DNA of 64,000 bases from Eledone cirrhosa. Lineage: Eukaryota. The first letter of the stretch is position 1; each line of letters starts with the position of its first letter. This document shows, in pieces, positions 1 through 64,000 of the stretch. Where the stretch lies: contig CAXHJY010001603.1 of assembly GCA_964016885.1 (NCBI GenBank), positions 1-64,000 of the forward strand. Reading direction: 5' to 3'. The notes below the pieces were generated by a model. It searched no databases and was not told the origin of the DNA. It saw only the letters and a list, made by a program, of their open reading frames with translations. A program made the position numbers and the translations under genes.

Positions 1-661
1 CAAGCTTATTAGCTATCGTCAGCATCGTATACCTTTCTGTCAGATGATTGAACGTTTGAAAGTATATACTTTCCTTATGCATATTAACGGCTGAGCAGCC
101 TAGTTTGCATATCGAGTGAGTTAGACGGCCGGGCTAAATGATAAATGGAAAAGAATGAAACGAAATTTCATTTCTCACTCTTAGTACGGCTGATACCTAA
201 ATATAAGTATGTATACGTACATACATATATGTGTACAGACGTACAGTAGTATGTATATATATACATACATGCACACATATATATGTATGTATAGTTTTTT
301 TTGTATGTGGATGTGTGTGTTTTTGTATGTGGATGTGTGTGTTTTTGTATGTATGTATGTGTGTTTATATATATGTGTGTGTATGTATGTGTTTATATAT
401 GAGTATATATATGTATATGCATGCACATGTGTATGTATGTGTACGTATATCTATTTTATATATATGTATACACATATATATATGCATGTGTGTATAGGTA
501 TATATGTGTGTATGTATGTGTATATATATATATATATGTATATACATATCTTGTGTATTTGTTTATATTTAAGTTGTTTTGATCTCCCCCCCCCCCCCAC
601 ACACACACACCTATCGTTGTCAACACGTCCCTCCTTCTTTTACTTTATTTTGTTTTTGTTT

Positions 662-10789: not shown

Positions 10790-10828
10790 TATACACATAC
10801 ATACACCCACACACAGAGAAATGGCCTT

Positions 10829-10832
<4 letters not shown>
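10199..10832 (-). mobile_element. Left arm of large inverted repeat (PLE-type 3' UTR with U3:A8 HHR at 10301-10348)
   Basis: Reverse complement of 17570-18645 apart from a few substitutions and microsatellite length; rc core TTGAAAA-gatgg..ccatc-GAAAC-cg-GTC. Confidence 0.9.
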
Positions 10833-10866
<34 letters not shown>

Positions 10867-10995
10867 CAGACACATATATTTTTTCCATAATATAAGAAGT
10901 TGGGGCAGTGAAATTAAAATACAAGTCATTCTGATCACATTGAGTTCTTCATGTAGATTGGGCCCCGCAACCGACAGTGGTGAATTCTGTGTGCG

Positions 10996-11205: not shown

Positions 11206-13536
11206 CTATTGGGGTGATAACCCGTTTAGTTTTGGTTTAAATTTGTTAAGGAATAGATTTTCTTTGTTTATTCTTTGTTGCTGTGTGAACGAATCTGAGC
11301 ACTTGTAGAAGGGGAAGATTTTAAAGTTGGGTAGTGTCATTCCTGCGCAGTTCGCAATATGGCTGCTCAGGGGGATTTTTCTTGTGTTAGCGTCCCGGAT
11401 TTGTTGGCGGTGGATGGTCATTCTTTTGCGTAATGAGGTGCCCGTCTGTCCTATGTAGTTGTGTTGGCACCCACCGCAAGTTATTGCGTAAATCAAGTTC
11501 TCCGAGTTGCAGGTGAAATTGTTTTTTACTGTAAATGTTTGGCCATCTTTGAATGTAAATGTTTGTCCTTCAGTGAGGTAGAGGCACGTTCCACAGTTTG
11601 TTCTACCACATTTGGTAACTGTAGGGTTGAGGATTGGTTTGGGTATATTTGGTCCAGTGAGAATGCGTTTAAGTGATTTGGGTTGTCTTTTACTTTTAAG
11701 GATCTTGTGTCTTTCAAGAATAGACTTCATTTTTGCATCTTTAAGTAGGATGGGGAGGTTTTTGTGTAGGTGATCAAACATTTCGGTATTTCTGGGGTTG
11801 AAAGTGGATACATATGGCAGGGTGTTGAGTGTGGTTTTCTGTTTTGGATTGTTAAGTTGATGGGGATTTAGGTGTTTTGCCCTGTCTATTCCATTGTTGA
11901 TTATTTCAAGTGGAAAGGCTCTTAAGATAAGGGTGTCTTTTAGTTTTTTTAGTCTTTGCTCCCGTTTAGGTGGATCTGATACTATGGTACATATACGTTT
12001 GGCCAAATTGTAAGGAATGTTAAGTTTTGTATGTTTTGGGTGACTTGATGTGAAAAAGAGGTATTGCTTGGAATCTGTGGGTTTATAGAATATATCTGTA
12101 TCTAATTTCCCGTCTATTACAGAGATGAGAATGTCCAAGAAGGCTAATTCCTTAGGATTGGATTCCATTGTGAATTGTATGTTATTATCTATGTTGTCTA
12201 TCATGTTTTTAAACGTAGTAAGTGAGTTCATGTCTTCTTGCCATAGGATAAAGCAGTCGTCTAGATATCTTTTCCAATTGGCTTTGAGGTGTGTGTGGAA
12301 AGAGTCTCCAAATAAGAGAAGGGACTGACTGTATATTTGTTGTTCATGGAATCCCATGACTAGGTTGGCATATGTGGGTGCTACTTTCGTGCCCATTGCC
12401 GTACCTGATACTTGTCTGTATGTTGAACCATTGAATGTGAAGTAGTTATTTTGTAGGATAAAGCGGAGTCCGTCAGTGATAAAATCTGTGTTGATGCGTG
12501 TCGGTATTTCTGATGGGTGTGTGTTAAGCCAGTATTGGACTGCTGTTATTCCATAGTTGTGAGGTATGTTTGTGTAGAGGTTTATTACGTCAAAGGAGAC
12601 AAGAATTGTATTTGCACTTACTGTTTTAGGGAGGTGTTTCAGCATGTCAAGGTCATCTCGTATGTAGCTCTGTATATGTTGTAGAAAGGGTTTCAGTAGG
12701 ATGTCCAGAAAGTTGCTAAGTCTGTGGGTTTCACATGTAGGGCCTGCTATAATTGGCCTGAGTTTTAGATCTTCTGGTGGTGTTAGTTAAATGTAATTGT
12801 TGGTTGAGGTGTCACATGCATCGTTTATGGGTTTACATTTGTGAAGTTTCGGTAAGCCGTAAAAAGAGCTTGTATTGCATTTGAAGTGGCTTATATAGTT
12901 AAACTCTTTTGTGGTTAAGCTGTTGCGGTATTTATTCAGTAAGGTCAAAAGGTTCCCCATTGTTTTGGTGTGTTTGTAGTTTTCTGTTTTTTCATAGTAT
13001 GTGTTGTTTTCTAAAATGTTAAGTGCGAGGGTCCTATAGTAGTCCGTATTCATAATGACAACAGTACTGCCTTTATCGGCTTCTTTGATAGTTATCTCAG
13101 GGTTGTTTCTAAGTGTGAATAATTCTTCCCATTCGTGTGTAGATAGGTTTGATTTCGTGTGTTTATTTGTAATTTTTTCATAGGGAAAGTTGGTGATGTG
13201 TTCGCAGTACGTGTCCAGTGCTTTATTTCTTCCCTTTTGTGGGCAGAAATTGCTTTTATTTCTAACCAGTGGTTCGTCTTCAGTGTTGGTGTCGTTGTGG
13301 AAGAATTCCGTTAGTCGCAGCTTTCGGCAGTATTCCATGATGTCATCCTTCATTTCGGGGAAGTTTGGTTTACGTGGTGTAGGTGTAAATTTCAGGCCCT
13401 TACTTAAAATGTTGATTTGTGTGTTGGTTAGAGGTGTCTTTGAGAGGTTGATTATTTTTGGTTTCTCCTGAGGGGGGGCCATCGAGTATCCTGGTATTTC
13501 AGGCTTTTCCCTAAAAAAGGAATGTAGTTTTGTGTG
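11206..13536 (-). pseudogene. PLE RT/GIY-YIG polyprotein with one in-frame TAA (12787-12789)
   Basis: LSKGLKFTPTP, KEADKGSTVV, FYGLPKLHK, [stop]LTPPEDLKLRPIIAG, SFDVINLYTNIP, GTAMGT, RYLDD, CGRTNCGTC linker, LIYAITC..YIGQT. The two track ORFs are in the same frame. Confidence 0.92.
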
Positions 13537-13826
13537 TGATTTACGCAATAACTTGCGGTGGGTGCCAACACAACTACATAGGACAGACGGGCACCTCATT
13601 ACGCAAAAGAATGACCATCCACCGCCAACAAATCCGGGACGCTAACACAAGAAAAATCCCCCTGAGCAGCCATATTGCGAACTGCGCAGGAATGACACTA
13701 CCCAACTTTAAAATCTTCCCCTTCTACAAGTGCTCAGATTCGTTCACACAGCAACAAAGAATAAACAAAGAAAATCTATTCCTTAACAAATTTAAACCAA
13801 AACTAAACGGGTTATCACCCCAATAG
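13537..13826 (+). pseudogene. Inverted duplicate of GIY-YIG C-terminus
   Basis: IYAITCGGCQHNYIGQT...GLSPQ is identical to the end of ORF 11206-12645. Confidence 0.9.
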
Positions 13827-14160
13827 AATTGTCATAAAATATAAACACACATACGCACGGAATCACTACTATTAAAGACCAGAGACCAATTCTGTAGAAT
13901 CAGGTTTATTCATTGACAGACCATGCCTTTGTGTGACCAACACATCCATGTTAAACCCTGCACGTGCACACACATATATCTATATCTATATATATATATA
14001 TATATATATATGTGCGCACACAGAATTCACCACTGTCGGTTGCGGGGCCCAATCTACATGAAGAACTCAATGTGATCAGAATGACTTGTATTTTAATTTC
14101 ACTGCCCCAACTTCTTATATTATGGAAAAAATATATGTGTCTGTATGTATATATATATAT

Positions 14161-15450
14161 ATATATATGTGAATATAGACATAGAATATTCGAAAATATT
14201 CTGTATGTTTATAATAAACATTTTGAAGACCTAATCGCTATAGAATAGAATACGTCACGTATTACAATTAGATTCTCGATAAAAGCAAGGGAAGTAATCT
14301 ACGCGTTTCATTCTCGTTAGAAATCATCAGGACTACATATCCAGTGCTTTTATCGAGAATGACACAGCTAGAGACTTATAGAATACTTAGCTGTGTACAG
14401 GAACTGGTTTGAAAGAGCGGTTGCCGGTCCGGCAGAAATTAGAAATTGGAATAAATGCTCTGAAATAGCGATATATATGTGAATATAGACATAGAATATT
14501 CGAAAATATTCTGTATGTTTATAATAAACATTTTGAAGACCTAATCGCTATAGAATAGAATACGTCACGTATTACAATTAGATTCTCGATAAAAGCAAGG
14601 GAAGTAATCTACGCGTTTCATTCTCGTTAGAAATCATCAGGACTACATATCCAGTGCTTTTATCGAGAATGACACAGCTAGAGACTTATAGAATACTTAG
14701 CTGTGTACAGGAACTGGTTTGAAAGAGCGGTTGCCGGTCCGGCAGAAATTAGAAATTGGAATAAATGCTCTGAAATAGCGATATATATGTGAATATAGAC
14801 ATAGAATATTCGAAAATATTCTGTATGTTTATAATAAACATTTTGAAGACCTAATCGCTATAGAATAGAATACGTCACGTATTACAATTAGATTCTCGAT
14901 AAAAGCAAGGGAAGTAATCTACGCGTTTCATTCTCGTTAGAAATCATCAGGACTACATATCCAGTGCTTTTATCGAGAATGACACAGCTAGAGACTTATA
15001 GAATACTTAGCTGTGTACAGGAACTGGTTTGAAAGAGCGGTTGCCGGTCCGGCAGAAATTAGAAATTGGAATAAATGCTCTGAAATAGCGATATATATGT
15101 GAATATAGACATAGAATATTCGAAAATATTCTGTATGTTTATAATAAACATTTTGAAGACCTAATCGCTATAGAATAGAATACGTCACGTATTACAATTA
15201 GATTCTCGATAAAAGCAAGGGAAGTAATCTACGCGTTTCATTCTCGTTAGAAATCATCAGGACTACATATCCAGTGCTTTTATCGAGAATGACACAGCTA
15301 GAGACTTATAGAATACTTAGCTGTGTACAGGAACTGGTTTGAAAGAGCGGTTGCCGGTCCGGCAGAAATTAGAAATTGGAATAAATGCTCTGAAATAGCG
15401 ATATATATGTGAATATAGACATAGAATATTCGAAAATATTCTGTATGTTT
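14161..15450 (-). repeat. 310-bp tandem array, ~4.2 units, HHR on minus strand (retrozyme-like)
   Basis: Unit starts at 14161, 14471, 14781, 15091 and 15401; HHRs at 14294-14336 plus 310n (4 copies). Confidence 0.95.
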
Positions 15451-17553
15451 AAGTCTCTAGCTGTGTCATTCTCGATAAAAGCACTGGATATGTAGTCCTG
15501 ATGATTTCTAACGAGAATGAAACGCGTAGATTACTTCCCTTGCTTTTATCGAGAATCTAATTGTAATACGTGACGTATTCTATTCTATAGCGATTAGGTC
15601 TTCAAAATGTTTATTATAAACATACAGAATATTTTCGAATATTCTATGTCTATATTCACATATATATCGCTATTTCAGAGCATTTATTCCAATTTCTAAT
15701 TTCTGCCGGACCGGCAACCGCTCTTTCAAACCAGTTCCTGTACACAGCTAAGTATTCTATAAGTCTCTAGCTGTGTCATTCTCGATAAAAGCACTGGATA
15801 TGTAGTCCTGATGATTTCTAACGAGAATGAAACGCGTAGATTACTTCCCTTGCTTTTATCGAGAATCTAATTGTAATACGTGACGTATTCTATTCTATAG
15901 CGATTAGGTCTTCAAAATGTTTATTATAAACATACAGAATATTTTCGAATATTCTATGTCTATATTCACATATATATCGCTATTTCAGAGCATTTATTCC
16001 AATTTCTAATTTCTGCCGGACCGGCAACCGCTCTTTCAAACCAGTTCCTGTACACAGCTAAGTATTCTATAAGTCTCTAGCTGTGTCATTCTCGATAAAA
16101 GCACTGGATATGTAGTCCTGATGATTTCTAACGAGAATGAAACGCGTAGATTACTTCCCTTGCTTTTATCGAGAATCTAATTGTAATACGTGACGTATTC
16201 TATTCTATAGCGATTAGGTCTTCAAAATGTTTATTATAAACATACAGAATATTTTCGAATATTCTATGTCTATATTCACATATATATCGCTATTTCAGAG
16301 CATTTATTCCAATTTCTAATTTCTGCCGGACCGGCAACCGCTCTTTCAAACCAGTTCCTGTACACAGCTAAGTATTCTATAAGTCTCTAGCTGTGTCATT
16401 CTCGATAAAAGCACTGGATATGTAGTCCTGATGATTTCTAACGAGAATGAAACGCGTAGATTACTTCCCTTGCTTTTATCGAGAATCTAATTGTAATACG
16501 TGACGTATTCTATTCTATAGCGATTAGGTCTTCAAAATGTTTATTATAAACATACAGAATATTTTCGAATATTCTATGTCTATATTCACATATATATCGC
16601 TATTTCAGAGCATTTATTCCAATTTCTAATTTCTGCCGGACCGGCAACCGCTCTTTCAAACCAGTTCCTGTACACAGCTAAGTATTCTATAAGTCTCTAG
16701 CTGTGTCATTCTCGATAAAAGCACTGGATATGTAGTCCTGATGATTTCTAACGAGAATGAAACGCGTAGATTACTTCCCTTGCTTTTATCGAGAATCTAA
16801 TTGTAATACGTGACGTATTCTATTCTATAGCGATTAGGTCTTCAAAATGTTTATTATAAACATACAGAATATTTTCGAATATTCTATGTCTATATTCACA
16901 TATATATCGCTATTTCAGAGCATTTATTCCAATTTCTAATTTCTGCCGGACCGGCAACCGCTCTTTCAAACCAGTTCCTGTACACAGCTAAGTATTCTAT
17001 AAGTCTCTAGCTGTGTCATTCTCGATAAAAGCACTGGATATGTAGTCCTGATGATTTCTAACGAGAATGAAACGCGTAGATTACTTCCCTTGCTTTTATC
17101 GAGAATCTAATTGTAATACGTGACGTATTCTATTCTATAGCGATTAGGTCTTCAAAATGTTTATTATAAACATACAGAATATTTTCGAATATTCTATGTC
17201 TATATTCACATATATATCGCTATTTCAGAGCATTTATTCCAATTTCTAATTTCTGCCGGACCGGCAACCGCTCTTTCAAACCAGTTCCTGTACACAGCTA
17301 AGTATTCTATAAGTCTCTAGCTGTGTCATTCTCGATAAAAGCACTGGATATGTAGTCCTGATGATTTCTAACGAGAATGAAACGCGTAGATTACTTCCCT
17401 TGCTTTTATCGAGAATCTAATTGTAATACGTGACGTATTCTATTCTATAGCGATTAGGTCTTCAAAATGTTTATTATAAACATACAGAATATTTTCGAAT
17501 ATTCTATGTCTATATTCACATATATATCGCTATTTCAGAGCATTTATTCCAAT
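15451..17553 (+). repeat. 310-bp tandem array, ~6.8 units, HHR on plus strand (retrozyme-like)
   Basis: aagtctctag at 15451, 15761, 16071, 16381, 16691, 17001 and 17311; reverse complement of the left block's unit; 7 HHRs. Confidence 0.95.
15492..15534 (+). ncRNA. Type I hammerhead ribozyme of the 310-nt monomer (representative of 11 copies)
   Basis: gtagtc-CTGATGA-tttctaacgagaat-GAAAC-gc-GTA^gattac; palindromic helix III ACGCGT; stem I extended by 16-bp attctcgataaaagca/tgcttttatcgagaat. Confidence 0.92.
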
Positions 17554-17569
17554 ATATATATATATATAT

Positions 17570-17857
17570 TTGAAGGCCATTTCTCTGTGTGTGGGTGTAT
17601 GTATGTGTATATGTGTGTGTGTGTGTATGTGTGTGCATGTGGATGTATGTATTGTGTGTGCGTGTGTGTGTGTGTGTGTGTATGTATGTGGGTATCTGGA
17701 TGTATGCGTATGTGTATATATATATATATGTATGCGTGTGTGTGTGTGTGTGTATATATATGTGTGTGTATGTGTGTATATATATGTGTGTGTGTGTGTA
17801 TGTTTGTATGTGTGTATGTATATATATATGTGTGTGTGTGTGTATGTATGTGTGGGG

Positions 17858-17935
<78 letters not shown>

Positions 17936-17974
17936 ATGTATGTGTGTATCTGGATGTATGTGTATGTATATATA

Positions 17975-18029
<55 letters not shown>

Positions 18030-18094
18030 ATGTGTATATATGTGTGTGTGTGTATGTGTGTATGTATATGTATGTGTGTGTGTATGTATGTGTG

Positions 18095-18133
<39 letters not shown>

Positions 18134-18640
18134 GTATATGTATATGTATGTATGTGTGGATGAAGGTATGTGTGTATATATAGGTGTAAGTGCACTAAAT
18201 CCCTTTCTATCACGCTCCACTCTCCTACCCACCACAAGAAGATATGTGTATGTATATTGCTTCCACCCCCTCACTGACCAGCAGCTGGCCAGCTGGTGAT
18301 TGCTAAATCTGACCTTTATAAAATAACCCACACCCCAAATAACTTCTCATTCACTACCAGAAAGGGACACAGCAGTCAACCTGTTGTTGCTACCTAGATG
18401 AAAACTGCTATGAAATCCCACAATGAATTTTATACTTGAATTTTCAAGTCTCAAATTTTAACTCTTCGTATTATTAATTTTTCTTAATATTAATCAACAT
18501 TTGAAAAGATGGCTTTTGCAGACCCATCGAAACCGGTCATTTTTTATACCCTTTATTATTTCCTTACCTTATAAAATTATGTTTTTTCACAAAAAAGTAT
18601 TCTGTCTCTTATATATTCCATGTGCCATTACCAACCTCAA

Positions 18641-20045: not shown

Positions 20046-20232
20046 TCAACAAAGGAAGGGAAATAAGCTGACAGATCTGTTTCACACTGTTGGTGTTCAT
20101 CAGAGCTTAGCACTCGCCAACCATTGCTGAAATTTATAGAGGCTTTTTTTAAATTAAACATACAGTATATTGCCAAATATACTATACATACATTCATGTA
20201 TACATCGCTATTTTAGAGCACCAATCCTAATA
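20045..20232. mobile_element. Diverged relative of the 310-bp retrozyme, fold-back; HHR at 20065-20108 on minus
   Basis: rc aagct-CTGATGA-acaccaacagtgt-GAAAC-agatct-GTC-agctt with extended stem I (tttcagcaa/ttgttgaaa). + strand taaacatacagtatatt...atcgctattttagagca matches the monomer. Confidence 0.75.
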
Positions 20233-21052
20233 TATATAAATATATATATAATGAAGGAATGAAGAGTAACATGGAATAGCTATACAGTAGGGTTTATTCC
20301 CAAGTATTAACATATGTTTCATTTGCTGGATGTTTCTAAAAATTGCTATCTGCAGTGCTTTTGTGACATTCGATCTTAAATACTGCTTTTACCAGCAAAA
20401 TGATCAAAATACTGTTTTATACAGCGATACTCAGATGTATAAATAATATCATGAAAAACAACACGATGAAAAGCGGAATGAAATAAGAAATAATAAGATA
20501 AAATAAAATAAAAAATATAATAACAAAAAAGTAAAAAATAAGAATATAAATATAGGTATATAGATGTGAAGATGAGAAGTAATAGGGTGAGAAACTATAA
20601 TAAAATACAGTAAAGTAAATCCAAAGATATATCAAAATTTATGAATGCAGAGATTTATATATCTGATGGGTAATAAAGATGGAGGGGTAAGATAGTGGAG
20701 GTATGCAAATGGCAATAATAAATGATTGATGCCATATGTGAGGGTAAGAGAATTGAAGGGGTGTATGTATAAAGATAGAATTCCTATTCAGTGTGGGAGT
20801 GTTCTTAGCTTGCCAGCTTCTCTTGCATCTGATTGGTTAAGAGTTTGTTCCTTGCATTTTATTGATTAATGGTACATCCTCTACTTTGATTACCTTATAG
20901 GATATATAATTTATATATATATATCCTATAAGGTAATCCACTACTTGGAGTACCCTAACTGGACTACATCTAAGTGGACTACCTATAACAATAATTTGTT
21001 ATCCCGTACATATATATAGATTGAGAAAATGCGAAGTAGTTTCAGTTGCGTC

Positions 21053-25218: not shown

Positions 25219-25715
25219 GATTTAGCTTCATGCATAGCTGTATACATATATGTATTGAAATTTCGTATTTCTAAAGAAATAAGATAAGATAAGTATTTAG
25301 AAAGCCGTAGCTATGCAAAACACTGAGGCTATTGCCCTCTGGTGGTGTCCAGCAGAAACAAGGGGGACAATCGTCGATGCATTTCGAATTTAACTCATCA
25401 AGACGATCCCTCTCACTCTTGCGACGGCATGATTTGAAAACAGGCGAGAATATATGGTTTTCTCGTCTGTCTAAATGAGGTGATTAACTTGTGCAGCTTC
25501 ATATACAAACGAGATCAATCACCTCATTTACACAGACGAGAAAGCCAGCAGTCGCAAGAGGGGAGGGATTGTCCTGATGAGGACCAGTTAGTTCGAAATG
25601 CATCGACGATTGTCCCCCTTGCTTCTGCTCGATACCACCAGAGGGCGTTAGCTACTGCTTTCTAAATGCTTATCTATAAACATACCGTATTTCTTTAGAA
25701 ATACGAAATTTCTAT
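25219..25715. mobile_element. Fold-back of a short HHR element; HHRs at 25370-25407 (-, decayed) and 25568-25610 (+)
   Basis: attgtc-CTGATGA-ggaccagttagttc-GAAA-tgc-ATC-gacgat; the arms are diverged reverse complements; third copy at 52110-52320. Confidence 0.85.
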
Positions 25716-33410: not shown

Positions 33411-39179
<5,769 letters not shown>

Positions 39180-39185
<6 letters not shown>

Positions 39186-39757
39186 TTGGAGCTCTGAAAT
39201 AGCAATATATATATGGATGTATATATAATGTATTTTGCAATGCACTTTATGCTTAATTAAAAGCATTTTGAAGACCGTAAGCTATTGTTTTAAAGTAGTG
39301 ACAAATTCACTTACTTTGATCTCAGCAAACAGGGGAGATAAGCCTACAAGGCCTTGTTTCGCTTTTGTTGAAGCTTATCAAGGCTAACTACTCCCTCCTG
39401 TCTACCGATATATATACAGCTACCAATATATATACATCCATATATATATTGCTATTTCAGAGCTCCAATTCTAATTTTTAATTTCTGCCTGACCAACAAC
39501 CGCTCTGTATAATCAGTTCCTGATTATTTACTAGAATTCTATAAGAATATAACATCAGTGATCTCGGTAGACAGGAGGGAGTAGTTAGCCTTGATAAGCT
39601 TCAACAAAAGCGAAACAAGGCCTTGTCGGCTTATCTCCCCTGTTTGCTGAGATCAAAGTAAGTGAATTTGTCACTACTTTAAAACAATAGCTTACGGTCT
39701 TCAAAATGCTTTTAATTAAGCATAAAGTGTATTGCAAAATACATTATATATACATCC

Positions 39758-39760
<3 letters not shown>
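39180..39760. mobile_element. ~318-bp retrozyme relative: partial minus copy plus one full plus monomer; U3:A8 HHRs at 39341-39385 (-) and 39587-39631 (+)
   Basis: agcc-TTGATAA-gcttcaacaaaagc-GAAAC-aaggcctt-GTC-ggct. Shares GGTCTTCAAAATG, GCTATTTCAGAGC, AATTTCTGCC.GACC..CAACCGCTCT and CAGTTCCTG with the 310-mer; tacatcca recurs at 39433 and 39751. Confidence 0.88.
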
Positions 39761-39788
<28 letters not shown>

Positions 39789-40519
39789 TATGTGTGTGTG
39801 TATGTATGAATGTTTGTGTATGTGTGTGTGTATGTGCACATGTATATTTATATTCATTTCAAACACTAACCACAATCCCTATTTCTTTATAGTACACATA
39901 TCCCTTTAAGGATATAGATAGTTTACACCGTAGCCTCACCCCTAACGTAGGTTAAACTACTTTCCTTATCTTTTTCTTCATTTTCATTTTTATTTTATTT
40001 AATTCCTCTCAGACAAACCACTGACCAACAGAAGTCCCCCCCTCCTCAGTACAGCACCACACTCTTTCAACTCCCATCACGCATAGCCCATACCCACCTC
40101 CATACCCAGCACCTTGCCCTCACCACATACACACCTAAATGTCTATGAAACAGCCAAATACCACATCCCCGCAACTCACACCAACCATCGCTCCCCACCA
40201 CTACCTCTTCATTATGACCCCCCCCCCACACACACTTATCACACATACCAAAACTTTCCCTATAACAAAACCACCAATCAAAATAGCAGTAACTGACCAC
40301 CATAAATGAATGCGAATCGTTATAGACCTTTTTAAGCCCTACAGGTCCGACGAGATTTTGATTCCAGAATCGGGCTAGATCGATACAGATCGAACCTTGA
40401 GCTGATCAATAAACATAATGAAGACATAACAAATCATCCTTTTATTATATAATGAACAGCCACGAAATTTAGTAGATAAATTATGTAATATTTATTCATT
40501 ATTTATTCATAGTAGGATG

Positions 40520-56016: not shown

Positions 56017-59000
56017 ATTTTTTTATGGGGGGGTCCGTTTTTTATTTGTGTGCCCCATATTTTATTTGGGTGTCCCGTTTTTTTATGGGGTGGTCCGTTT
56101 TTTATTTGGGTGTTCCGTTTTTTATGGGGGGTCCGTTTTTTATTTGGATGCCCCGTTTTTTTATGGGGGTTCCGTTTTTTATTTGGGTGCCCCGTTTTTT
56201 ATTTGGGTGCCTCGTTTTTTATGGGTGGGTCCGTATTTTATTTGGGTGCCCCGTTTTTATTTGGGTGTCCCGTTTTTTTATGGGTCCGTTTTTTATTTGG
56301 GTGCCCAGTTTTTTATTTGGGTGCCCCGTTTTTTATTTGGGTGCCCCGTTTTTTTATGGGGGGTCCATTTTTTATTTGGGTGCCCCGTTTTTTTATGGGG
56401 GGGTCCGTTTTTTATTAGGGTGCCCCGTTTTTTATGGGGGGGTCCGTTATTTATTTGGGTGCCCCGTTTTTTTATGGGGTGGCCCGTTTTTTATTTGGGT
56501 GTTCCGTTTTTTTATTGGGGGTCCGTTTTTTATTTGGATGCCCCGTTTTTTTATGGGGGGCGCCGTTTTTTATTTGGGTGCCTCGTTTTTTATGGGTGGG
56601 TCCGCATTTTATTTAGGTGCCCCGTTTTTATTTGGGTGTCCCGTTTATTTATGGGGGTCCGTTTTTTATTTGGGTGCCCCGTTTTTTTATGGGGGGTCCA
56701 TTTTTTATTTGGGTGCCCCGTTTTTTATTAGGGTGCCCCGTTTTTTATGGGGGGGTCCGTTTTTTATTTAGGTGCCCCGTTTTTTATGGGAGGGTCCGTT
56801 TCTTATTTGGGTGCCTCGTTTTTTTTATGGGGGGCGCGTTTATTATTTGGGTGCCCCGTTTTTTATGGGGGGGGTCCGTATTTTATTTGGGTGCCCCGTT
56901 TTTATTTGGGTGTCCCGTTTTCTTTATGGGGGTCCGTTTTTTATTTGGGTGCCCCGTTTTTTTATGGGGGGTCCGTTTTTTATTTGGGTGCCCCGTTTTT
57001 TATTTGGGTTCCCCGTTTTCTATTTGGGTGTCCCGTTTTTTTATGGGGGAGGGTCCGTTTTTTATTTGGGTGTCCCGTTTTTTATGGTGGGGGTCCGTTT
57101 TTTAATTGGGTGCCCCGTTTTTTTATGCGGCGGTCGGTTTTTTATTTAGATGCCCCGTTTTTTATTTGGGTGACCCGTTTTTTATTTGGGTGCCCCGTTT
57201 TTTTATGGGGTTCCGTTTTTTATTTGGGTGCCCCGTTTTTTATTTGGGTTCCCCGTTTTATTATGGGGGGCACCGTTTTTATTTGGGTGCCCCTTTTTTT
57301 ATGGGGTGTGTCTGTTTTTTATTTGTGTGCCCCATTTTTTATTTGGGTGCCCCGTTTTTTTATGGGGTGGTCCGCTTTTTATTTGGGTGTTCCGTTTTTT
57401 TATGGGGGGTCCGTTTTTTATTTGGATGCCCCGTTTTTTTATGGGGGGGTTCCGTTTTTTATTTGGGTGCCCCGTTTTTTATTTGGGTGCCCCGTTTGTT
57501 ATTTGGGTGCCCCGTTTTTTATTTGGGTGCCCCGTTTTTTTATGGGGGGCGCCGTTTTTTATTTGGTTGCCTCGTTTTTTATGGGTGGGTCCGTATTTTA
57601 TTTAGGTGCCTCGTTTTTATTTGGGTGTCCCGTTTTTTTATGGGGTCCGTTTTTTATTTGGGTGCCCCGTTTTTTATTTGGGTGCCCCATTTTTTTATGG
57701 GGGGTGCATTTTTTATTTGGGTGCCCCGTTTTTTTATGGGGGGGTCCGTTTTTTATTAGGGTGCCCCGTTTTTTATGGGGGGGTCCGTTATTTATTTGGG
57801 TGCCCCGTTTTTTTTATAGGGGGGTCCGTTTTTTATTTAGGTGCCCCGTTTTTTATTTGGGTGCCCCGTTTTTTATGGGGTGGCCGTTTTTTATTTGGGT
57901 GTTCCGTTTTTTTATGGGAGGGTCCGTTTTTTATTTGGATGCGCCGTTTTTTATGGGGGGTTCCGTTATTTATTTGGGTGCCCCGTTTTTTTTATAGGGG
58001 GGTCCGTTTTTTATTTAGGTGCCTCGTTTTTTATTTGGGTGCCCCGTTTTTTTATGGGGTGGTCCGTTTTTTATTTGGGTGTTCCGTTTTTTTATGGGAG
58101 GGTCCGTTTTTTATTTGGATGCCCCGTTTTTTTATGGGGGGTTCCGTTTTTTATTTGGGTGCCCCGTTTTTTATTTGGGTGCCCCGTTTTTTTATGGGGG
58201 GCGCCGTTTTTTATTTGGGTGCCTCGTTTTTTATGGGTGGGTCCGTATTTTATTTAGGTGCCCCGTTTTTATTTGGGTATCCCGTTTTTTTATGGGGGGG
58301 TCCGTTTTTTATTTGTGTGCCCCATTTTTTATTTGGGTGCCCCGTTTTTTTATGGGGTGGTCCGTTTTTTATTTGGGTGTTCCGTTTTTTATGGGGGGTC
58401 CGTTTTTTATTTGGATGCCCCGTTTTTTTATGGGGGTTCCGTTTTTTATTTGGGTGCCCCGTTTTTTATTTGGGTGCCTCGTTTTTTATGGGTGGGTCCG
58501 TATTTTATTTGGGTGCCCCGTTTTTTATGGGGGGGTCCGTTATTTATTTGGGTGCCCCGTTATTTTATGGGGTGGCCCGTTTTTTATTTGGGTGTTCCGT
58601 TTTTTTATGGGGGGTCCGTTTTTTATTTGGATGCCCCGTTTTTTTATGGGGGGTTCCGTTTTTTATTTGGGTGCCTCGTTTTTTATGGGTGGGTCCGCAT
58701 TTTATTTAGGTGCCCCGTTTTTATATGGGTGTCCCGTTTATTTATGGGGGTCCGTTTTTTATTTGGGTGTTCCGTTTTTTATTGGGGGTCCGTTTTTTAT
58801 TTGGATACCCCGTTTTTTTATGGGGGTTCCGTTTTTTATTTGGGTGCCCCGTTTTTTATTTGGGTGCCTCGTTTTTTATGGGTGGGTCCGTATTTTATTT
58901 GGGTGCCCCGTTTTTATTTGGGTGGCCCGTTTTTTTATGGGGTCCGTTTTTTATTTGGGTGCCCAGTTTTTTATTTGGGTGCCCCGTTTTTTATTTGGGT

Positions 59001-62000
59001 GTCCCGTTTTTTTATGGGGGGTCCATTTTTTATTTGGGTGCCCCGTTTTTTTATGGGGGGTCCGTTTTTTATTAGGGTGCCCCGTTTTTTATGGGGGGGT
59101 CCGTTATTTATTTGGGTGCCCCGTTTTTTTATGGGGTGGCCCGTTTTTTATTTGGGTGTTCCGTTTTTTATGGGGGGTCCGTTTTTTATTTGGATGCCCC
59201 GTTTTTTTATGGGGGGTTCCGTTTTTTATTTGGGTGCCTCGTTTTTTATGGCTGGGTCCGCATTTTATTTAGGTGCCCCGTTTTTATTTGGGTATCCCGT
59301 TTATTTATGGGGGTCCGTTTTTTATTTGGGTGTTCCGTTTTTTATTGGGGGTCCGTTTTTTATTTGGATGCCCCGTTTTTTTATGGGGGGCGCCGTTTTT
59401 TATTTGGGTGCCCCGTTTTTTATTTGGGTTCCCCGTTTCCTATTTGGGTGTCCCGTTTTTTTATGGGGGAGGGTCCGTTTTTTATTTGGGTGTCCCGTTT
59501 TTTATGGTGGGGGGTCCGTTTTTTAATTGGGTGCCCCGTTTTTTTATGCGGCGGTCGGTTTTTTATTTAGATGCCCCGTTTTTTATTTGGGTGACCCGTT
59601 TTTTATTTGGGTGCCCCGTTTTTTTATGGGGTTCCGTTTTTTATTTGGGTGCCCCGTTTTTTATTTGGGTTCCCCGTTTTATTATGGGGGGCACCGTTTT
59701 TATTTGGGTGCCCCTTTTTTTATGGGGTGTGTCTGTTTTTTATTTGTGTGCCCCATTTTTTTTTGGGTGCCCCGTTTTTTTATGGGGTGGTCCGTTTTTT
59801 ATTTGGATGCCCCGTTTTTTATGGGGGGGTTCCGTTTCTTATTTGGGTGCCCCGTTTTTTATTTGGGTGCCCCGTTTTTTTATGGGGGGCGCCGTTTTTT
59901 ATTTGGTTGCCTCGTTTTTTATGGGTGGGTCCGTATTTTATTTAGGTGTCTCGTTTTTATTTGGGTGTCCCGTTATTTTATGGGGTCCGTTTTTTATTTG
60001 GGTGCCCCGTTTTTTATTTGGGTGCCCCGTTTTTTATTTGGGTGCCCCATTTTTTTATGAGGGGTGCATTTTTTATTTGGGTGCCCCGTTTTTTTATGGG
60101 GGGGGGTCCGTTTTTTATTAGGGTGCCCCGTTTTTTATGGGGGGGTCCGTTATTTATTTGGGTGCCCCGTTTTTTTATAGGGGGGTCCGTTTTTTATTTA
60201 GGTGCCTCGTTTTTTATTTGGGTGCCCCGTTTTTTTATGGGGTGGTCCGTTATTTATTTGGGTGTTCCGTTTTTTTATGGGAGGGTCCGTTTTTTTATTT
60301 GGATGCCCCGTTTTTTATTTGGGTGCCCCGTTTTTTTATGGGGGGCGCCGTTTTTTATTTGGGTGCCTCGTTTTTTATGGGTGGGTCCGTATTTTATTTA
60401 GGTGCCCCGTTTTTATTTGGGTATCCCGTTATTTTATGGGGGGGTCCGTTTTTTATTTGTGTGCCCCATTTTTTATTTGGGTGCCCCGTTTTTTTATGGG
60501 GTGGTCCGTTTTTTATTTGGGTGTTCCGTTTTTTATGGGGGGTCCGTTTTTTATTTGGATGCCCCGTTTTTTTATGGGGGTTCCGTTTTTTATTTGGGTG
60601 CCCCGTTTTTTATTTGGGTGCCTCGTTTTTTATGGGTGGGTCCGTATTTTATTTGGGTGCCCCGTTTTTATTTGGGTGTCCCGTTTTGTTATGGGGTCCG
60701 TTTTTTATTTGGGTGCCCAGTTTTTTATTTGGGTGCCCCGTTTTTTATTTGGGTGCCCCGTTTTTTTATGGGGGGTCCATTTTTTATTTGGGTGCCCCGT
60801 TTTTTTATGGGGGGGTCCGTTTTTTATTAGGGTGCCCCGTTTTTTATGGGGGGGTCCGTTATTTATTTGGGTGCCCCGTTTTTTTATGGGGTGGCCCGTT
60901 TTTTATTTGGGTGTTCCGTTTTTTTTTATGGGGGGTCCGTTTTTTATTTGGATTCCCCATTTTTTTATGGGGGGTTCCGTTTTTTATTTGGGTGCCTCGT
61001 TTTTTATGGGTGGGTCCGCATTTTATTTAGGTGCCCCGTTTTTATTTGGGTGTCTCGTTTATTTATAGGGGTCCGTTTTTTATTTGGGTGTTCCGTTTTT
61101 TATTGGGGGTACGTTTTTTATTTGGATGCCCCGTTTTTTTATGGGGGGCGCCGTTTTTTATTTGGGTGCCTCGTTTTTTATGGGTGGGTCCGCATTTTAT
61201 TTAGGTGCCCCGTTTTTATTTGGGTGTCCCGTTTATTTATGGGGGTCCGTTTTTTATTTGGGTGCCCCGTTTTTTATTTGGGTGCCCCGTTTTTTTATGG
61301 GGGGTCCATTTTTTATTTGGGTGCCCCGTTTTTTTATGGGGGGGTCCGTTTTTTATTAGGGTGCCTCGTTTTTTATGGGTGGGTCCGCATTTTATTTAGG
61401 TGCCCCGTTTTTATTTGGGTGTCCCGTTTATTTATGGGGGTCCGTTTTTTATTTGGGTGTTCCGTTTTTTATTGGGGGTCCGTTTTTTATTTGGATGCCC
61501 CGTTTTTTTATGGGGGTTCCGTTTTTTATTTGGGTGCCCCGTTTTTTATTTGGGTGCCTCGTTTTTTATGGGTGGGTCCGTATTTTATTTGGGTGCCCAG
61601 TTTTTAATTTAGGTGCCACGTTTTTTATTTGGGTGCCCCGTTTTTTTATGGGGTGGCCCGTTTTTTATTTGGGTGTTCCGTTTTTTTATGGGGGGTCCGT
61701 TTTTTATTTGGATGCCCCGTTTTTTTATGGGGGGTTCCGTTTCTTATTTGGGTGCCTCGTTTTTGATGGGTGGGTCCGCATTTTATTTAGGTGCCCCGTT
61801 TTTATTTGGGTGTCCCGTTTATTTATGGGGGTCCGTTTTTTATTTGGGTGTTCCGTTTTTTATTGGGGGTCCGTTTTTTATTTGGATGCCCCGTTTTTTT
61901 ATGGGGGGCGCCGTTTTTTATTTGGGTGCCTCGTTTTTTATGGGTGGGTCCGCATTTTATTTAGGTGCCCCGTTTTTATTTGGGTGTCCCGTTTATTTAT

Positions 62001-64000
62001 GGGGGTCCGTTTTTTATTTGGGTGCCCCGTTTTTTATTTGCGTGCCCCGTTTTTTTATGGGGGGTCCATTTTTTATTTGGGTGCCCCGTTTTTTTATGGG
62101 GGGGTCCGTTTTTTATTAGGGTGCCCCGTTTTTTATGGGGGGGTCCGTTTTTTATTTAGGTGCCCCGTTTTTTATGGGAGGGTCCGTTTCTTATTTGGGT
62201 GCCTCGTTTTTTTATGGGGGCGCGTTTATTATTTGGGTGCCCCGTTTTTATTTGGGTGTCCCGTTATCTTTATGGGGGTCCGTTTTTTATTTGGGTGCCC
62301 CGTTTTTTATGGGGGGTCCGTTTTTTATTTGGGTGCCCCGTTTTTTATTTGGGTTCCCCGTTTTCTATTTGGGTGTCCCGTTTTTTTATGGGGGAGGGTC
62401 CGTTTTTTATTTGGATGTCCCGTTTTTTATGGTGGGGGGTCCGTTTTTTAATTGGGTGCCCCGTTTTTTTATGCGGCGGTCTGTTTTTTATTTAGATGCC
62501 CCGTTTTTTATTTGGGTGACCCGTTTTTTATTTGGGTGCCCCGTTTTTTTTATGGGGTTCCGTTTCTTATTTGGGTGCCCCGTTTTTTATTTGGGTTCCC
62601 CGTTTTATTATGGGGGGCACCGTTTTTGTTTGGGTGCTCCTTTTTTTATGGGGTGTGTCTGTTTTTTATTTGTGTGCCCCATTTTTTATTTGGGTGCCCC
62701 GTTTTTTTATGGGGTGGTCCGCTTTTTATTTGGGTGTTCCGTTTTTTATGGGGGGTCCGTTTTTTATTTGGATGCCCCGTTTTTTTATGGGGGGTTCCAT
62801 TTTTTATTTGGGTGCCCCGTTTTTTATTTGGGTGCCCCGTTTTTTATTTGGGTGCCCCGTTTTTTTATGGGGGGCGCCGTTTTTTATTTGGTTGCCTCGT
62901 TTTTTATGGGTGGGTCCGTATTTTATTTAGGTGCCTCGTTTTTATTTGGGTGTCCCGTTTTTTTATGGGGTCCGTTTTTTATTTGGGTGCCCCGTTTCTT
63001 ATTTGGGTGCCCCGTTTTTTATTTGGGTGCCCCATTTTTTTATGGGGGGTGCATTTTTTTATTTGGGTGCCCCGTTTTTTTATGGGGGGGTCCGTTTTTT
63101 ATTAGGGCGCCCCGTTTTTTATGGGGGGGTCCGTTATTTATTTGGGTGCCCCGTTTTTTATAGGGGGGTTCGTTTTTTATTTAGGTGCCCCGTTTTTTAA
63201 TTGGGTGCCCCGTTTTTTTATGGGGTGGTCCGTTTTATATTTGGGTGTACCGTTTTTTTATGGGAGGGTCCGTTTTTTATTTGGATGCGCCGTTTTTTTA
63301 TGGGGGGTTCCGTTATTTATTTGGGTGCCCCTTTTTTTTAATAGGGGGGTCCGTTTTTTATTTAGGTGCCTCGTTTTTTATTTGGGTGCCCCGTTTTTTT
63401 ATTGGGTGGTCCGTTTTTTATTTGGGTGTGCCGTTTTTTAATGGGAGGGTCCGTTTTTTATTTGGATGCCCCGTTTTTTAATGGGGGGTTCCGTTTTTTA
63501 TTTGGGTGCCCCGTTTTTTATTTGGGTGCCCCGTTTTTTTATGGGGGGCGCCGTTTTTTATTTGGGTGCCCCGTTTTTTATGGGTGGGTCCGTATTTTAT
63601 TTAGGTGCCCCGTTTTGATTTGGGTATCCCGTTTTTTTATGGGGGTCCGTTTTTTATTTGGGTTCCCCGTTTTTTATTTGGGTGCCCCGTTTTTTATTTG
63701 GGTGCCCCGTTTTTTTATGGGGGGTCCATTTTTTATTTGGTTTCCCGTTTTTTTATGGGGTGTCCGTTTTTTATTAGGGTGCCCAGTTTTTTATGGGGGG
63801 GGTCCGTTATTTATTTGGGTGCCCCGTTTTTTAATGGGGGGGTCCGTTTTTTATTTAGGTACCCCGTTTTTTTATGGGGGGGTCCGTTTCTTATTTGGGT
63901 GCCTCGTTTTTTTATGGGGGGCGCGTTTATTATTTGGGTGCCCCGTTTTTATTTGTGTGTCCTGTTTTCTTTATGGGGTCCGTTTTTTATTTGGGTGCCC
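56017..64000. repeat. G/T-skewed ~20-22-bp satellite with higher-order structure
   Basis: Alternating monomers ccgttttttatttgggtgcc and ccgtttttttatggggggt, running to the window end. Confidence 0.97.

Follow-up and report, generated by a model that had tools for sequence, protein, structure and literature searches.

Non-LTR retrozymes of animals have been proposed to be non-autonomous elements mobilised by Penelope-like elements (PLEs), the published link being shared hammerheads, co-occurrence and similarity to pLTRs (PMC7229834; bioRxiv 10.64898/2026.07.22.740005). The hallmarks of PLEs are an inverted truncated arm, a tail of 30-40 nt and (TA)n targets, and their reverse transcriptases (RTs) are sister to TERT (PMC8557442). 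In vitro work on an anole PLE has identified the tail as the stretch between two internal RT starts, with both strands cut and extended; RNA 3' of the starts, to +172, was required and hammerhead cleavage was dispensable (PMC11167929). A further point of reference is the A-clade R2 3' UTR, in which a protein engaged in TPRT recognises and positions its template by a pseudoknot and compensatory mutations rescue (PMC12180492). How a PLE RT chooses its RNA, why there are two internal starts and a 30-40-nt tail, and how retrozymes borrow the machinery are left open in these papers.

We analysed a 64,000-nt stretch of contig CAXHJY010001603.1 from Eledone cirrhosa (hereafter the window). The locus at 39180-39759 is a known kind of element with an undescribed covarying RNA fold, and the origin of the PLE tail is now directly testable. 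We assign a probability of roughly 0.7 to the reading that it represents a two-armed retrozyme insertion whose predicted pseudoknot serves as a handle for a Penelope-like RT and sets both of its start points.

Architecture of the locus and its retrozyme family

The locus consists of two arms between (TA)n tracts (Table 1) and is a Penelope-style insertion, not a lone monomer. The first-pass annotation had described a second, diverged 318-nt retrozyme with the layout of the 310-nt monomer. All of its named pieces were found on the plus strand, the repeat period of the family is indeed 318 nt and the 310-nt array shares the layout, while the single-monomer picture gave way to two arms with a filler between them. 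The hammerhead has an intact core and all three helices, as is usual in non-LTR retrozymes, and its core is the same U3-A8 covariant that has been reported for PLE hammerheads (PMC4209133). In Rfam it produced a sub-threshold match to HH9 at 39584-39640 (22 bits); at the gathering score there were zero matches in the window and none for the non-ribozyme domain, for which such a search had been suggested. As the annotation had stated, the ribozyme stems have diverged from those of the 310-nt monomer, with 46 of 99 ribozyme columns identical compared with 139 of 217 outside (Fisher p=0.0045). Each arm carries one hammerhead, on opposite strands, and the copy lacks the two or more consecutive hammerhead units by which active copies are recognised in bioRxiv 10.64898/2026.07.22.740005. 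Having neither a tandem hammerhead pair nor a contiguous fold, it is likely a product rather than a template.

At the level of the family the unit is short (~300 nt), non-coding and tandem, like the ~300-nt AT-rich non-coding tandem units with type I hammerheads of the described non-LTR animal retrozymes; an RT-recognition structure, fixed end sites and an inverted two-arm layout do not appear in the accessible text of these reports (PMC7229834; bioRxiv 10.64898/2026.07.22.740005). Canonical EN+ PLEs likewise have a hammerhead upstream of two internal RT starts, the U3-A8 core variant, an inverted 5'-truncated arm, a 30-40-nt tail and (TA)n targets (PMC8557442; PMC11167929), and as in non-autonomous Penelope-like elements an inverted 5'-truncated arm stands here beside a direct arm.

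In the genome (3.0 Gb) the 318-nt unit has at least 99 matches (40 of 1261 candidates scored), most of them 95-100% identical. A two-block pattern matched 18,145 times and two further patterns 1224 and 1696 times, with 0 matches in the controls. The 153 distinct full units form 27 clusters at 10% distance, and these form four lineages, A to D. Divergence from the consensus is 1.5% in A (310 nt), 2.6% in B, to which the copy at 39180-39759 belongs, and ~5% in C and D; the 318-nt hammerhead retrozyme family is young. Tandem arrays of 318-nt units lie elsewhere, for example at loci L002 and L017. Beyond these stand lineage F, with at least 46 matches (40 of 2460 candidates scored), and lineage E, made of hammerhead units of ~480-510 nt (L124 7300-9501; L404-L423) in which the helix designated P1 below holds an insert of 170-290 nt with a variable (TA)n tract.

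Lineages A-D provided 182 distinct arm ends, of which 84 lie at one position (site 1), 73 at another (site 2) and 25 at neither, the positions being uncertain by ~2 nt because of AT microhomology. The 157 ends at the two sites run into TA or CA repeats, and 24 of the 33 two-armed loci have one end of each kind. The GCTATT block comes directly after site 1, and site 2 lies 7-18 nt beyond this block; the two are fixed 3' ends 33-34 nt apart. As the internal sequence that follows site 1 in lineage D is not an AT repeat, the end is positional. One arm thus has a tail of 33-34 nt in A-D and F, within the 30-40 nt typical of PLEs; the tail is 42 nt long in the autonomous element treated below and about 55-59 nt long in E. 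By analogy with the anole PLE, the two arm-end sites can be equated with the ends of the Penelope tail, which are known starts of reverse transcription.

Table 1. Coordinates, within the 64,000-nt window, of the locus, its predicted RNA features and related copies.
Feature	Position	Strand	Remark
(TA)n target, left flank	39147..39180
Inverted 5'-truncated arm	39408->39180	-	hammerhead through P1, 5' pseudoknot strand and tail; ends at site 2 in (TA)n
Filler at head-to-head arm junction	39409..39426		18 nt
Direct arm, lineage B	39427..39759	+	~1.05 units of the 318-nt monomer; ends at site 1 in (TA)n
(TA)n target, right flank	39760..39791
Named conserved blocks	39451-39463, 39480-39509, 39514-39522, 39536-39545, 39696-39708	+
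P1 3' strand (predicted)	39451..39456	+	pairs with 39686-39691 of the preceding unit or circle
P5 5' strand (predicted)	39458..39463	+	site 2 ~11 nt after (near 39474)
3' pseudoknot strand (predicted), TGACC	39490..39494	+	flanking hairpin P6 broken in lineage B
P5 3' strand (predicted)	39502..39507	+
CAGTTCCTG and ATTCTATAAG blocks	39514..39545	+	outside the pseudoknot fold (CAGTTCCTG at its edge); promoter-like candidate
Type I hammerhead	39560..39654	+	stem I is long, helix III a 4-bp palindrome; U3-A8 core; cleavage predicted after 39627
Stem I extension	39560-39575 with 39639-39654	+
Hammerhead core TTGATAA (UUGAUAA in RNA)	39591-39597	+
GAAA of the hammerhead	39612-39615	+
Palindromic helix III	39615-39626	+	predicted cleavage after C39627
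P1 5' strand (predicted)	39686..39691	+
5' pseudoknot strand (predicted), GGTCT, start of GGTCTTCAAAATG block	39696..39700	+
Three covarying hairpins inside P1	39706..39759	+	the arm end truncates the third; site 1 near 39759
Sister lineage A (310 nt) array	14161..17553		4.2 inverted + 6.8 direct units; ends at site 1 and site 2
Distant lineage F copy, two arms	25259..25710		family supplies compensatory changes in P1, pseudoknot and P5

Conservation and a predicted fold outside the ribozyme

Mean identity among eight family consensuses was 0.60 in the ribozyme domain, 0.92 in the tail, 0.83 both before and after the tail, and 0.78 and 0.71 in the two flanking hairpins; the non-ribozyme region was more conserved than the ribozyme in all seven family pairs tested (p<=0.015). 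The proposal that an element outside the ribozyme is more constrained in sequence than the ribozyme stems is therefore supported (0.60 in the ribozyme domain against 0.71-0.92). In a count over 24 clusters, which left out A, B and one chimeric copy, variability was 0.072 in the named blocks, 0.140 in the rest outside the ribozyme, 0.071 in the ribozyme core and 0.259 in the ribozyme stems, with the qualification that three of the blocks and the core had served to select the copies, so that the apparent conservation of these is inflated. Among 11 clusters of lineage D, the blocks unused for selection scored 0.094, the rest of the non-ribozyme region 0.096 and the ribozyme stems 0.226, which excludes in this lineage that the blocks are islands above the rest of their domain. 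Their conservation is thus upheld relative to the ribozyme stems and not as that of unique islands, and the near-identity of their sequences applies to the closer lineages; in distant ones the letters change and the pairing is kept.

Variants common to at least three genomic sites (overlapping loci merged) numbered 35 in the ribozyme domain and 26 outside, whereas private variants numbered 95 and 189 (shared-versus-private contrast, p=4.7e-4; per lineage, p was 0.013 in B, 0.039 in C and 0.14 in A). Inherited variants avoid the non-ribozyme domain and private ones do not, which indicates that the whole domain is under selection during propagation. A conserved short ORF across the blocks was considered and rejected, as lineages A and B use different frames. 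A>G was the top change in A (6) and C (12) and not in B, with no clear strand skew, and A-to-I editing behind the fast ribozyme stems is not supported.

The conserved blocks are predicted to fold into a pseudoknot of ~140 nt across the unit junction or in a circle. In the predicted topology, a strand containing GG lies inside helix P1 together with site 1. P5 comes immediately after P1, with site 2 and a 5-nt loop inside it; this loop pairs with the GG strand, the loop-loop pair being GGUCU/UGACC in the copy at 39180-39759. The whole fold is carried by nine junctions of the lineage A array in the window. Single monomers of A and B fold independently to the same P1/P5 frame (z -4.0 and -5.8), with an unpaired GGUCU and the hairpins inside P1 and an unpaired (G/U)GACC inside P5. 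Over 17 copies of A-D, 95.3% of 680 cells were paired and 24 cells had changed on both sides (0 of 500 shuffles). Two-sided change affected five pairs, a number reached by 58 of 500 shuffles, and four of these are in the hairpins; P1 and P5 had no two-sided change within the 17 copies, which therefore prove little for these two helices.

Between lineages the long-range strands appear to have been rewritten with pairing kept. Lineage F has P1 GCAUAGCU/AGCUAUGC, P5 GAAGCU/AGCUUC and the loop pair GGCUU/GAGCC, the last present in 6 of 10 copies, and a model of A-D that contains no pseudoknot pairs places the GGCUU and GAGCC of F onto GGUCU and GGACC (L302, 41 bits; AT-repeat background reached 36 bits in this search). 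The main subfamily of lineage E has CAGG/CCUG, with all four strands matching in 37 of 46 copies, the second subfamily CGGG/CCCG together with a matching change in P1 (3 of 3 copies), and GGCCU/GGGCC is found in a metagenome relative treated below. Within A-D, AACC occurs in 2 of 10 GGUU copies and in 0 of 94 others (p=0.008); nine of these ten copies, which carry GACC (7), AACC (2) or UACC (1), had been fetched for GGUU. The fold tolerates changes of the G-U type. Hairpin P6, which presents the loop, is broken in lineage B by two C-A oppositions in 34 of 38 copies.

On this comparative evidence we consider it very probable that the fold is real, and the blocks seem to be conserved largely because they pair over long range within one fold, rather than as independent sequence motifs. 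The second selected RNA element postulated in the first-pass annotation is borne out by the conservation above the stems in all seven family pairs, the bias of inherited variants and the covariation of helices across lineages; the opposite picture, of unremarkable blocks without covariation, was looked for and was not what we found. A descriptor of the fold was written from these examples and tuned after the fact. In its first form it missed the autonomous element by one spacer base and gave 9 background matches beside 12 matches to A and F in 1.10 Mb. A loosened form, tied to the two end sites, matched A, C, D and F, for each of which none of 300 shuffles did so. It also matched B (0 of 2000 shuffles), apart from a first B copy that lacks the 5' half, and the two variants of the autonomous element (0 and 1 of 2000 shuffles).

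The ATTCTATAAG block, outside the fold, resembles a TATA box and hardly varies in A-D; the 163-nt unit described below does not contain it. It is plausible, though somewhat less likely than not, that this block is a separate, perhaps promoter, element. Just 3' of P5, lineages E and F carry an octamer, ATGCAAAT, that could likewise speak for a promoter. Internal promoters have been reported for hammerhead satellites, namely an snRNA-type promoter in newt satellite 2 and a Pol III promoter in a schistosome satellite (PMC2220036). That the blocks altogether are DNA promoter elements which keep the retrozyme transcribed is nevertheless very unlikely, as it explains neither the register of the arm ends nor the changes on both sides of the pairs in P1, P5 and the loop.

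A candidate autonomous partner and relatives with the fold

The P0001 family is abundant in the genome, with many intact frames of 900-905 aa. Its single ORF encodes an RT plus a GIY-YIG domain at the C terminus, and its pLTRs have a hammerhead and a tail, as is characteristic of EN+ PLEs. By eye, the DKG and CCHH motifs are kept and the linker, CX4CX7C, is unlike the Neptune and Hydra forms in PMC8557442; judged by this linker motif the clade is likely Nematis-like. An octopus protein is the only close relative with a species name, and no match was found among solved structures. The 59 ends of its copies fall in (TA)n at two sites separated by 42 nt, 33 at one (a class assigned by exclusion) and 26 at the other. 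In the RNA of this family, P1 (GCAUUGU/ACAAUGC) lies over the start codon, P5 reads GUGAACU/AGUUCAC and a GAGCC loop faces GGCUU. The commonest young variant has GGCCU; its 5-nt pairing is interrupted by a C-A mismatch, leaving only UGGC/GCCA, 4 bp in a shifted register.

Sequence likeness of the retrozyme domain to pLTRs was found neither in 50 GIY-YIG loci (150 of 10596 candidates scored) nor in 50 loci of the P0001 family, the retrozyme arm occurred in 0 of 50 autonomous loci, and the A-D model detects neither the autonomous element nor its metagenome relatives. The link consists of topology, register and one chimera. At this chimeric locus (L151/L152, G000:C1:56077000-56080195), four 163-nt units without ribozyme are joined head to head with a 5'-truncated arm of the P0001 family. 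The units span exactly the fold, from P1 to just past P5, and alternate units share variants; the chimera could also be a later deletion between neighbours. The P0001 family is thus the best candidate partner, and the balance tilts slightly towards its being the actual mobiliser of lineage B.

Other candidates were rejected. The 163-nt unit is not a family of its own, given four matches at one locus, a second 163 spacing being an inversion junction. Elements of the Neptune type share the tail and the TA habits, yet the loosened descriptor has no match in two of their 5' regions. As for a closer autonomous family, the 74 listed matches of a 56%-identical relative are all 55-56% identical to it, and those cross-checked by coordinates belong to the same family.

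Three distinct elements with a start region are present among 36 metagenome loci. Two of them have the whole fold at the ATG, namely L339/L340 (GGCCU/GGGCC) and L342 (GGCUU/GAGCC), with 1 and 0 of 1000 shuffles respectively; the fold is absent from the start region of L354 and from a 3' copy, L343. P1 and GGYYU over an ATG are found in 3 of 13 metagenome 3' regions (16 in all, three too short to test), where 0.1 are expected. In the printed anole template (PMC11167929) we recognise by eye a 7-bp helix of +50-56 with +94-100 and a 4-bp complement of +63-66 with +132-135, the latter in the loop of a hairpin, 14 nt beyond the start given in that study; a helix enclosing site 2 was not seen in this reading.

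These relatives bear on two further explanations. The fold might serve circle formation or stability, or restrain the hammerhead, with the arm ends falling at exposed single strands. The whole fold needs the unit junction, as in a circle, and metazoan retrozyme circles need some block of the ribozyme (PMC7229834), whereas the same topology at the start codon of linear autonomous elements and its retention in the ribozyme-less 163-nt tandem make such a role very unlikely. It is more improbable still that the fold is a passively carried relic of translation or splicing signals of the parent element. The 3' strand of P1 does overlap the first ATG in the autonomous element, L339 and L342, and in B-D a stretch of 121 nt lies between splice-like words, GTAAGT and TTTCAG; yet retrozymes, which have no conserved frame, are still under selection in this region, and several copies as well as lineage A have lost the donor-like word. 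As to a retained intron, no joint at the splice-like words was found in four sequencing runs, which are DNA or unlabelled and so uninformative on splicing.

A proposed role of the pseudoknot at the starts of reverse transcription

Site 1 lies 6-11 nt before the 3' strand of P1 and site 2 15-20 nt before the loop strand, and these offsets stay similar while the length of the tail varies; lineage E fits the register by eye. Because of the fold in the P0001 family, this end register and the arm-end counts, RT recruitment is favoured among the three roles that the annotation had offered, a promoter being a possibility for ATTCTATAAG only. We therefore propose that the pseudoknot probably recruits a PLE RT and positions it. 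A tandem transcript would be cut by its hammerheads and probably circularised. An autonomous protein with RT and GIY-YIG domains, for which the P0001 family is the best candidate, would bind the fold and nick both strands of a (TA)n tract. Synthesis of one cDNA would begin some 8-11 nt to the 5' side of the 3' strand of P1, that of the other some 15-20 nt to the 5' side of the loop of the pseudoknot, and the two 5'-truncated cDNAs would join head to head to give an inverted pair with the tail on one arm.

The same register is predicted if the fold acts after or beside RT loading, as a single-stranded structure, of DNA or RNA, by which the GIY-YIG nuclease would know the intermediate that it resolves, leaving the tail. 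The tail of the D. virilis element was needed for endonuclease recognition, as recounted in PMC11167929, and PMC8557442 ascribes the tail to endonuclease-mediated resolution. This alternative is unlikely, since no terminal unit ever includes a copy of the loop strand or the 3' strand of P5, both of which are situated 3' of the two ends, the tolerated G-U type changes suit RNA, and the ends of the anole tail in vitro are RT starts (PMC11167929).

If the pseudoknot positions the RT, its closest functional analogue would be the pseudoknot-hinge-stem of the A-clade R2 3' UTR, with which it shares conservation of fold and not of sequence (PMC12180492). In R2, reverse transcription begins downstream of the pseudoknot, where the RNA has its 3' end, whereas both starts here are internal and lie between pseudoknot strands; moreover, the RT clade and the nuclease of R2 are unrelated to those of PLEs. 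In the anole study an AC-rich stem-loop was reported at one start and the binding motif was left unmapped within 172 nt (PMC11167929), while here a covarying pseudoknot brackets both starts. A pseudoknot at the starts of PLE reverse transcription did not turn up in the literature searched, which covers few subscription journals; the one PLE passage checked there concerns a frameshift pseudoknot.

Telomerase RNA has an internal start within a helix-closed loop beside a pseudoknot. Its template/pseudoknot core resembles the predicted PLE fold in these respects; the PLE fold differs in having no short repeated template, in that the whole unit is copied processively, and in the order of its elements. 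As PLE RTs are the sister group of telomerase, the fold bears on the origin of pseudoknot-guided internal initiation. With a covarying fold at fixed offsets to both starts, each of the questions left open by the literature could be approached by changing a handful of bases in an assay that is already established in vitro. The fold also offers a means to pair non-autonomous families with their mobiliser where sequence similarity is gone, and suggests a short cassette for PLE-based insertion. It is tempting to go further and see in the pseudoknot a general template-recognition module of canonical Penelope-like RTs, from invertebrate clades to the vertebrate Poseidon, which alone sets the tail, forms a portable cassette of 160 nt that would make any RNA (linear or circular, with ribozyme or not) a PLE template, and is a living counterpart of the template/pseudoknot core of telomerase RNA; we regard this extension as rather unlikely.

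Several other elements were noticed in the window and the genome. Positions 11218-13566 (-), 13900-14160 and 17569-18200 of the window belong to a PLE of the Neptune type (56% to L114), one arm of which is inverted; the 310-nt lineage A array sits in a (TA)n tract of this inverted arm, and the other arm holds an empty-site copy of this target at about 10818-10925. By eye, the 5' pLTR of L114 (-) has a possible simple H-type pseudoknot around the outer end site, of different topology. U3-A8 cores are also present in several Neptune-type families (L084, L091, L098, L108, L114, L115, L123, L125, L133), and in 5' pLTRs of the P0001 family (L322 (+) 990-1110, others) the core often has CC instead of CU, while 3' copies keep CU. 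A TA-inserted element of ~170 nt at L116, L119, L123 and L132 has a hammerhead resembling the core of lineage A and often forms an inverted pair. Old tandem arrays of lineage C at L203 and L204 contain units that differ strongly in the ribozyme stems. The window further holds a copy of the second subfamily of lineage E at ~80-230 (-) and a degenerate lineage D arm at 20134-20235 (+), which ends at site 2 (59.6 bits). A pair resembling long terminal repeats surrounds minus-strand ORFs at 33812-39148 and ends at the left (TA)n flank of the locus at 39180-39759; identical 49-nt tandem repeats lie at 33812 and 38686, and 34228-34275 equals 39101-39148. The end of the window, 56018-64000, is filled by 8 kb of a satellite rich in T and G, arrayed in 20/40-nt units with a strong strand skew.
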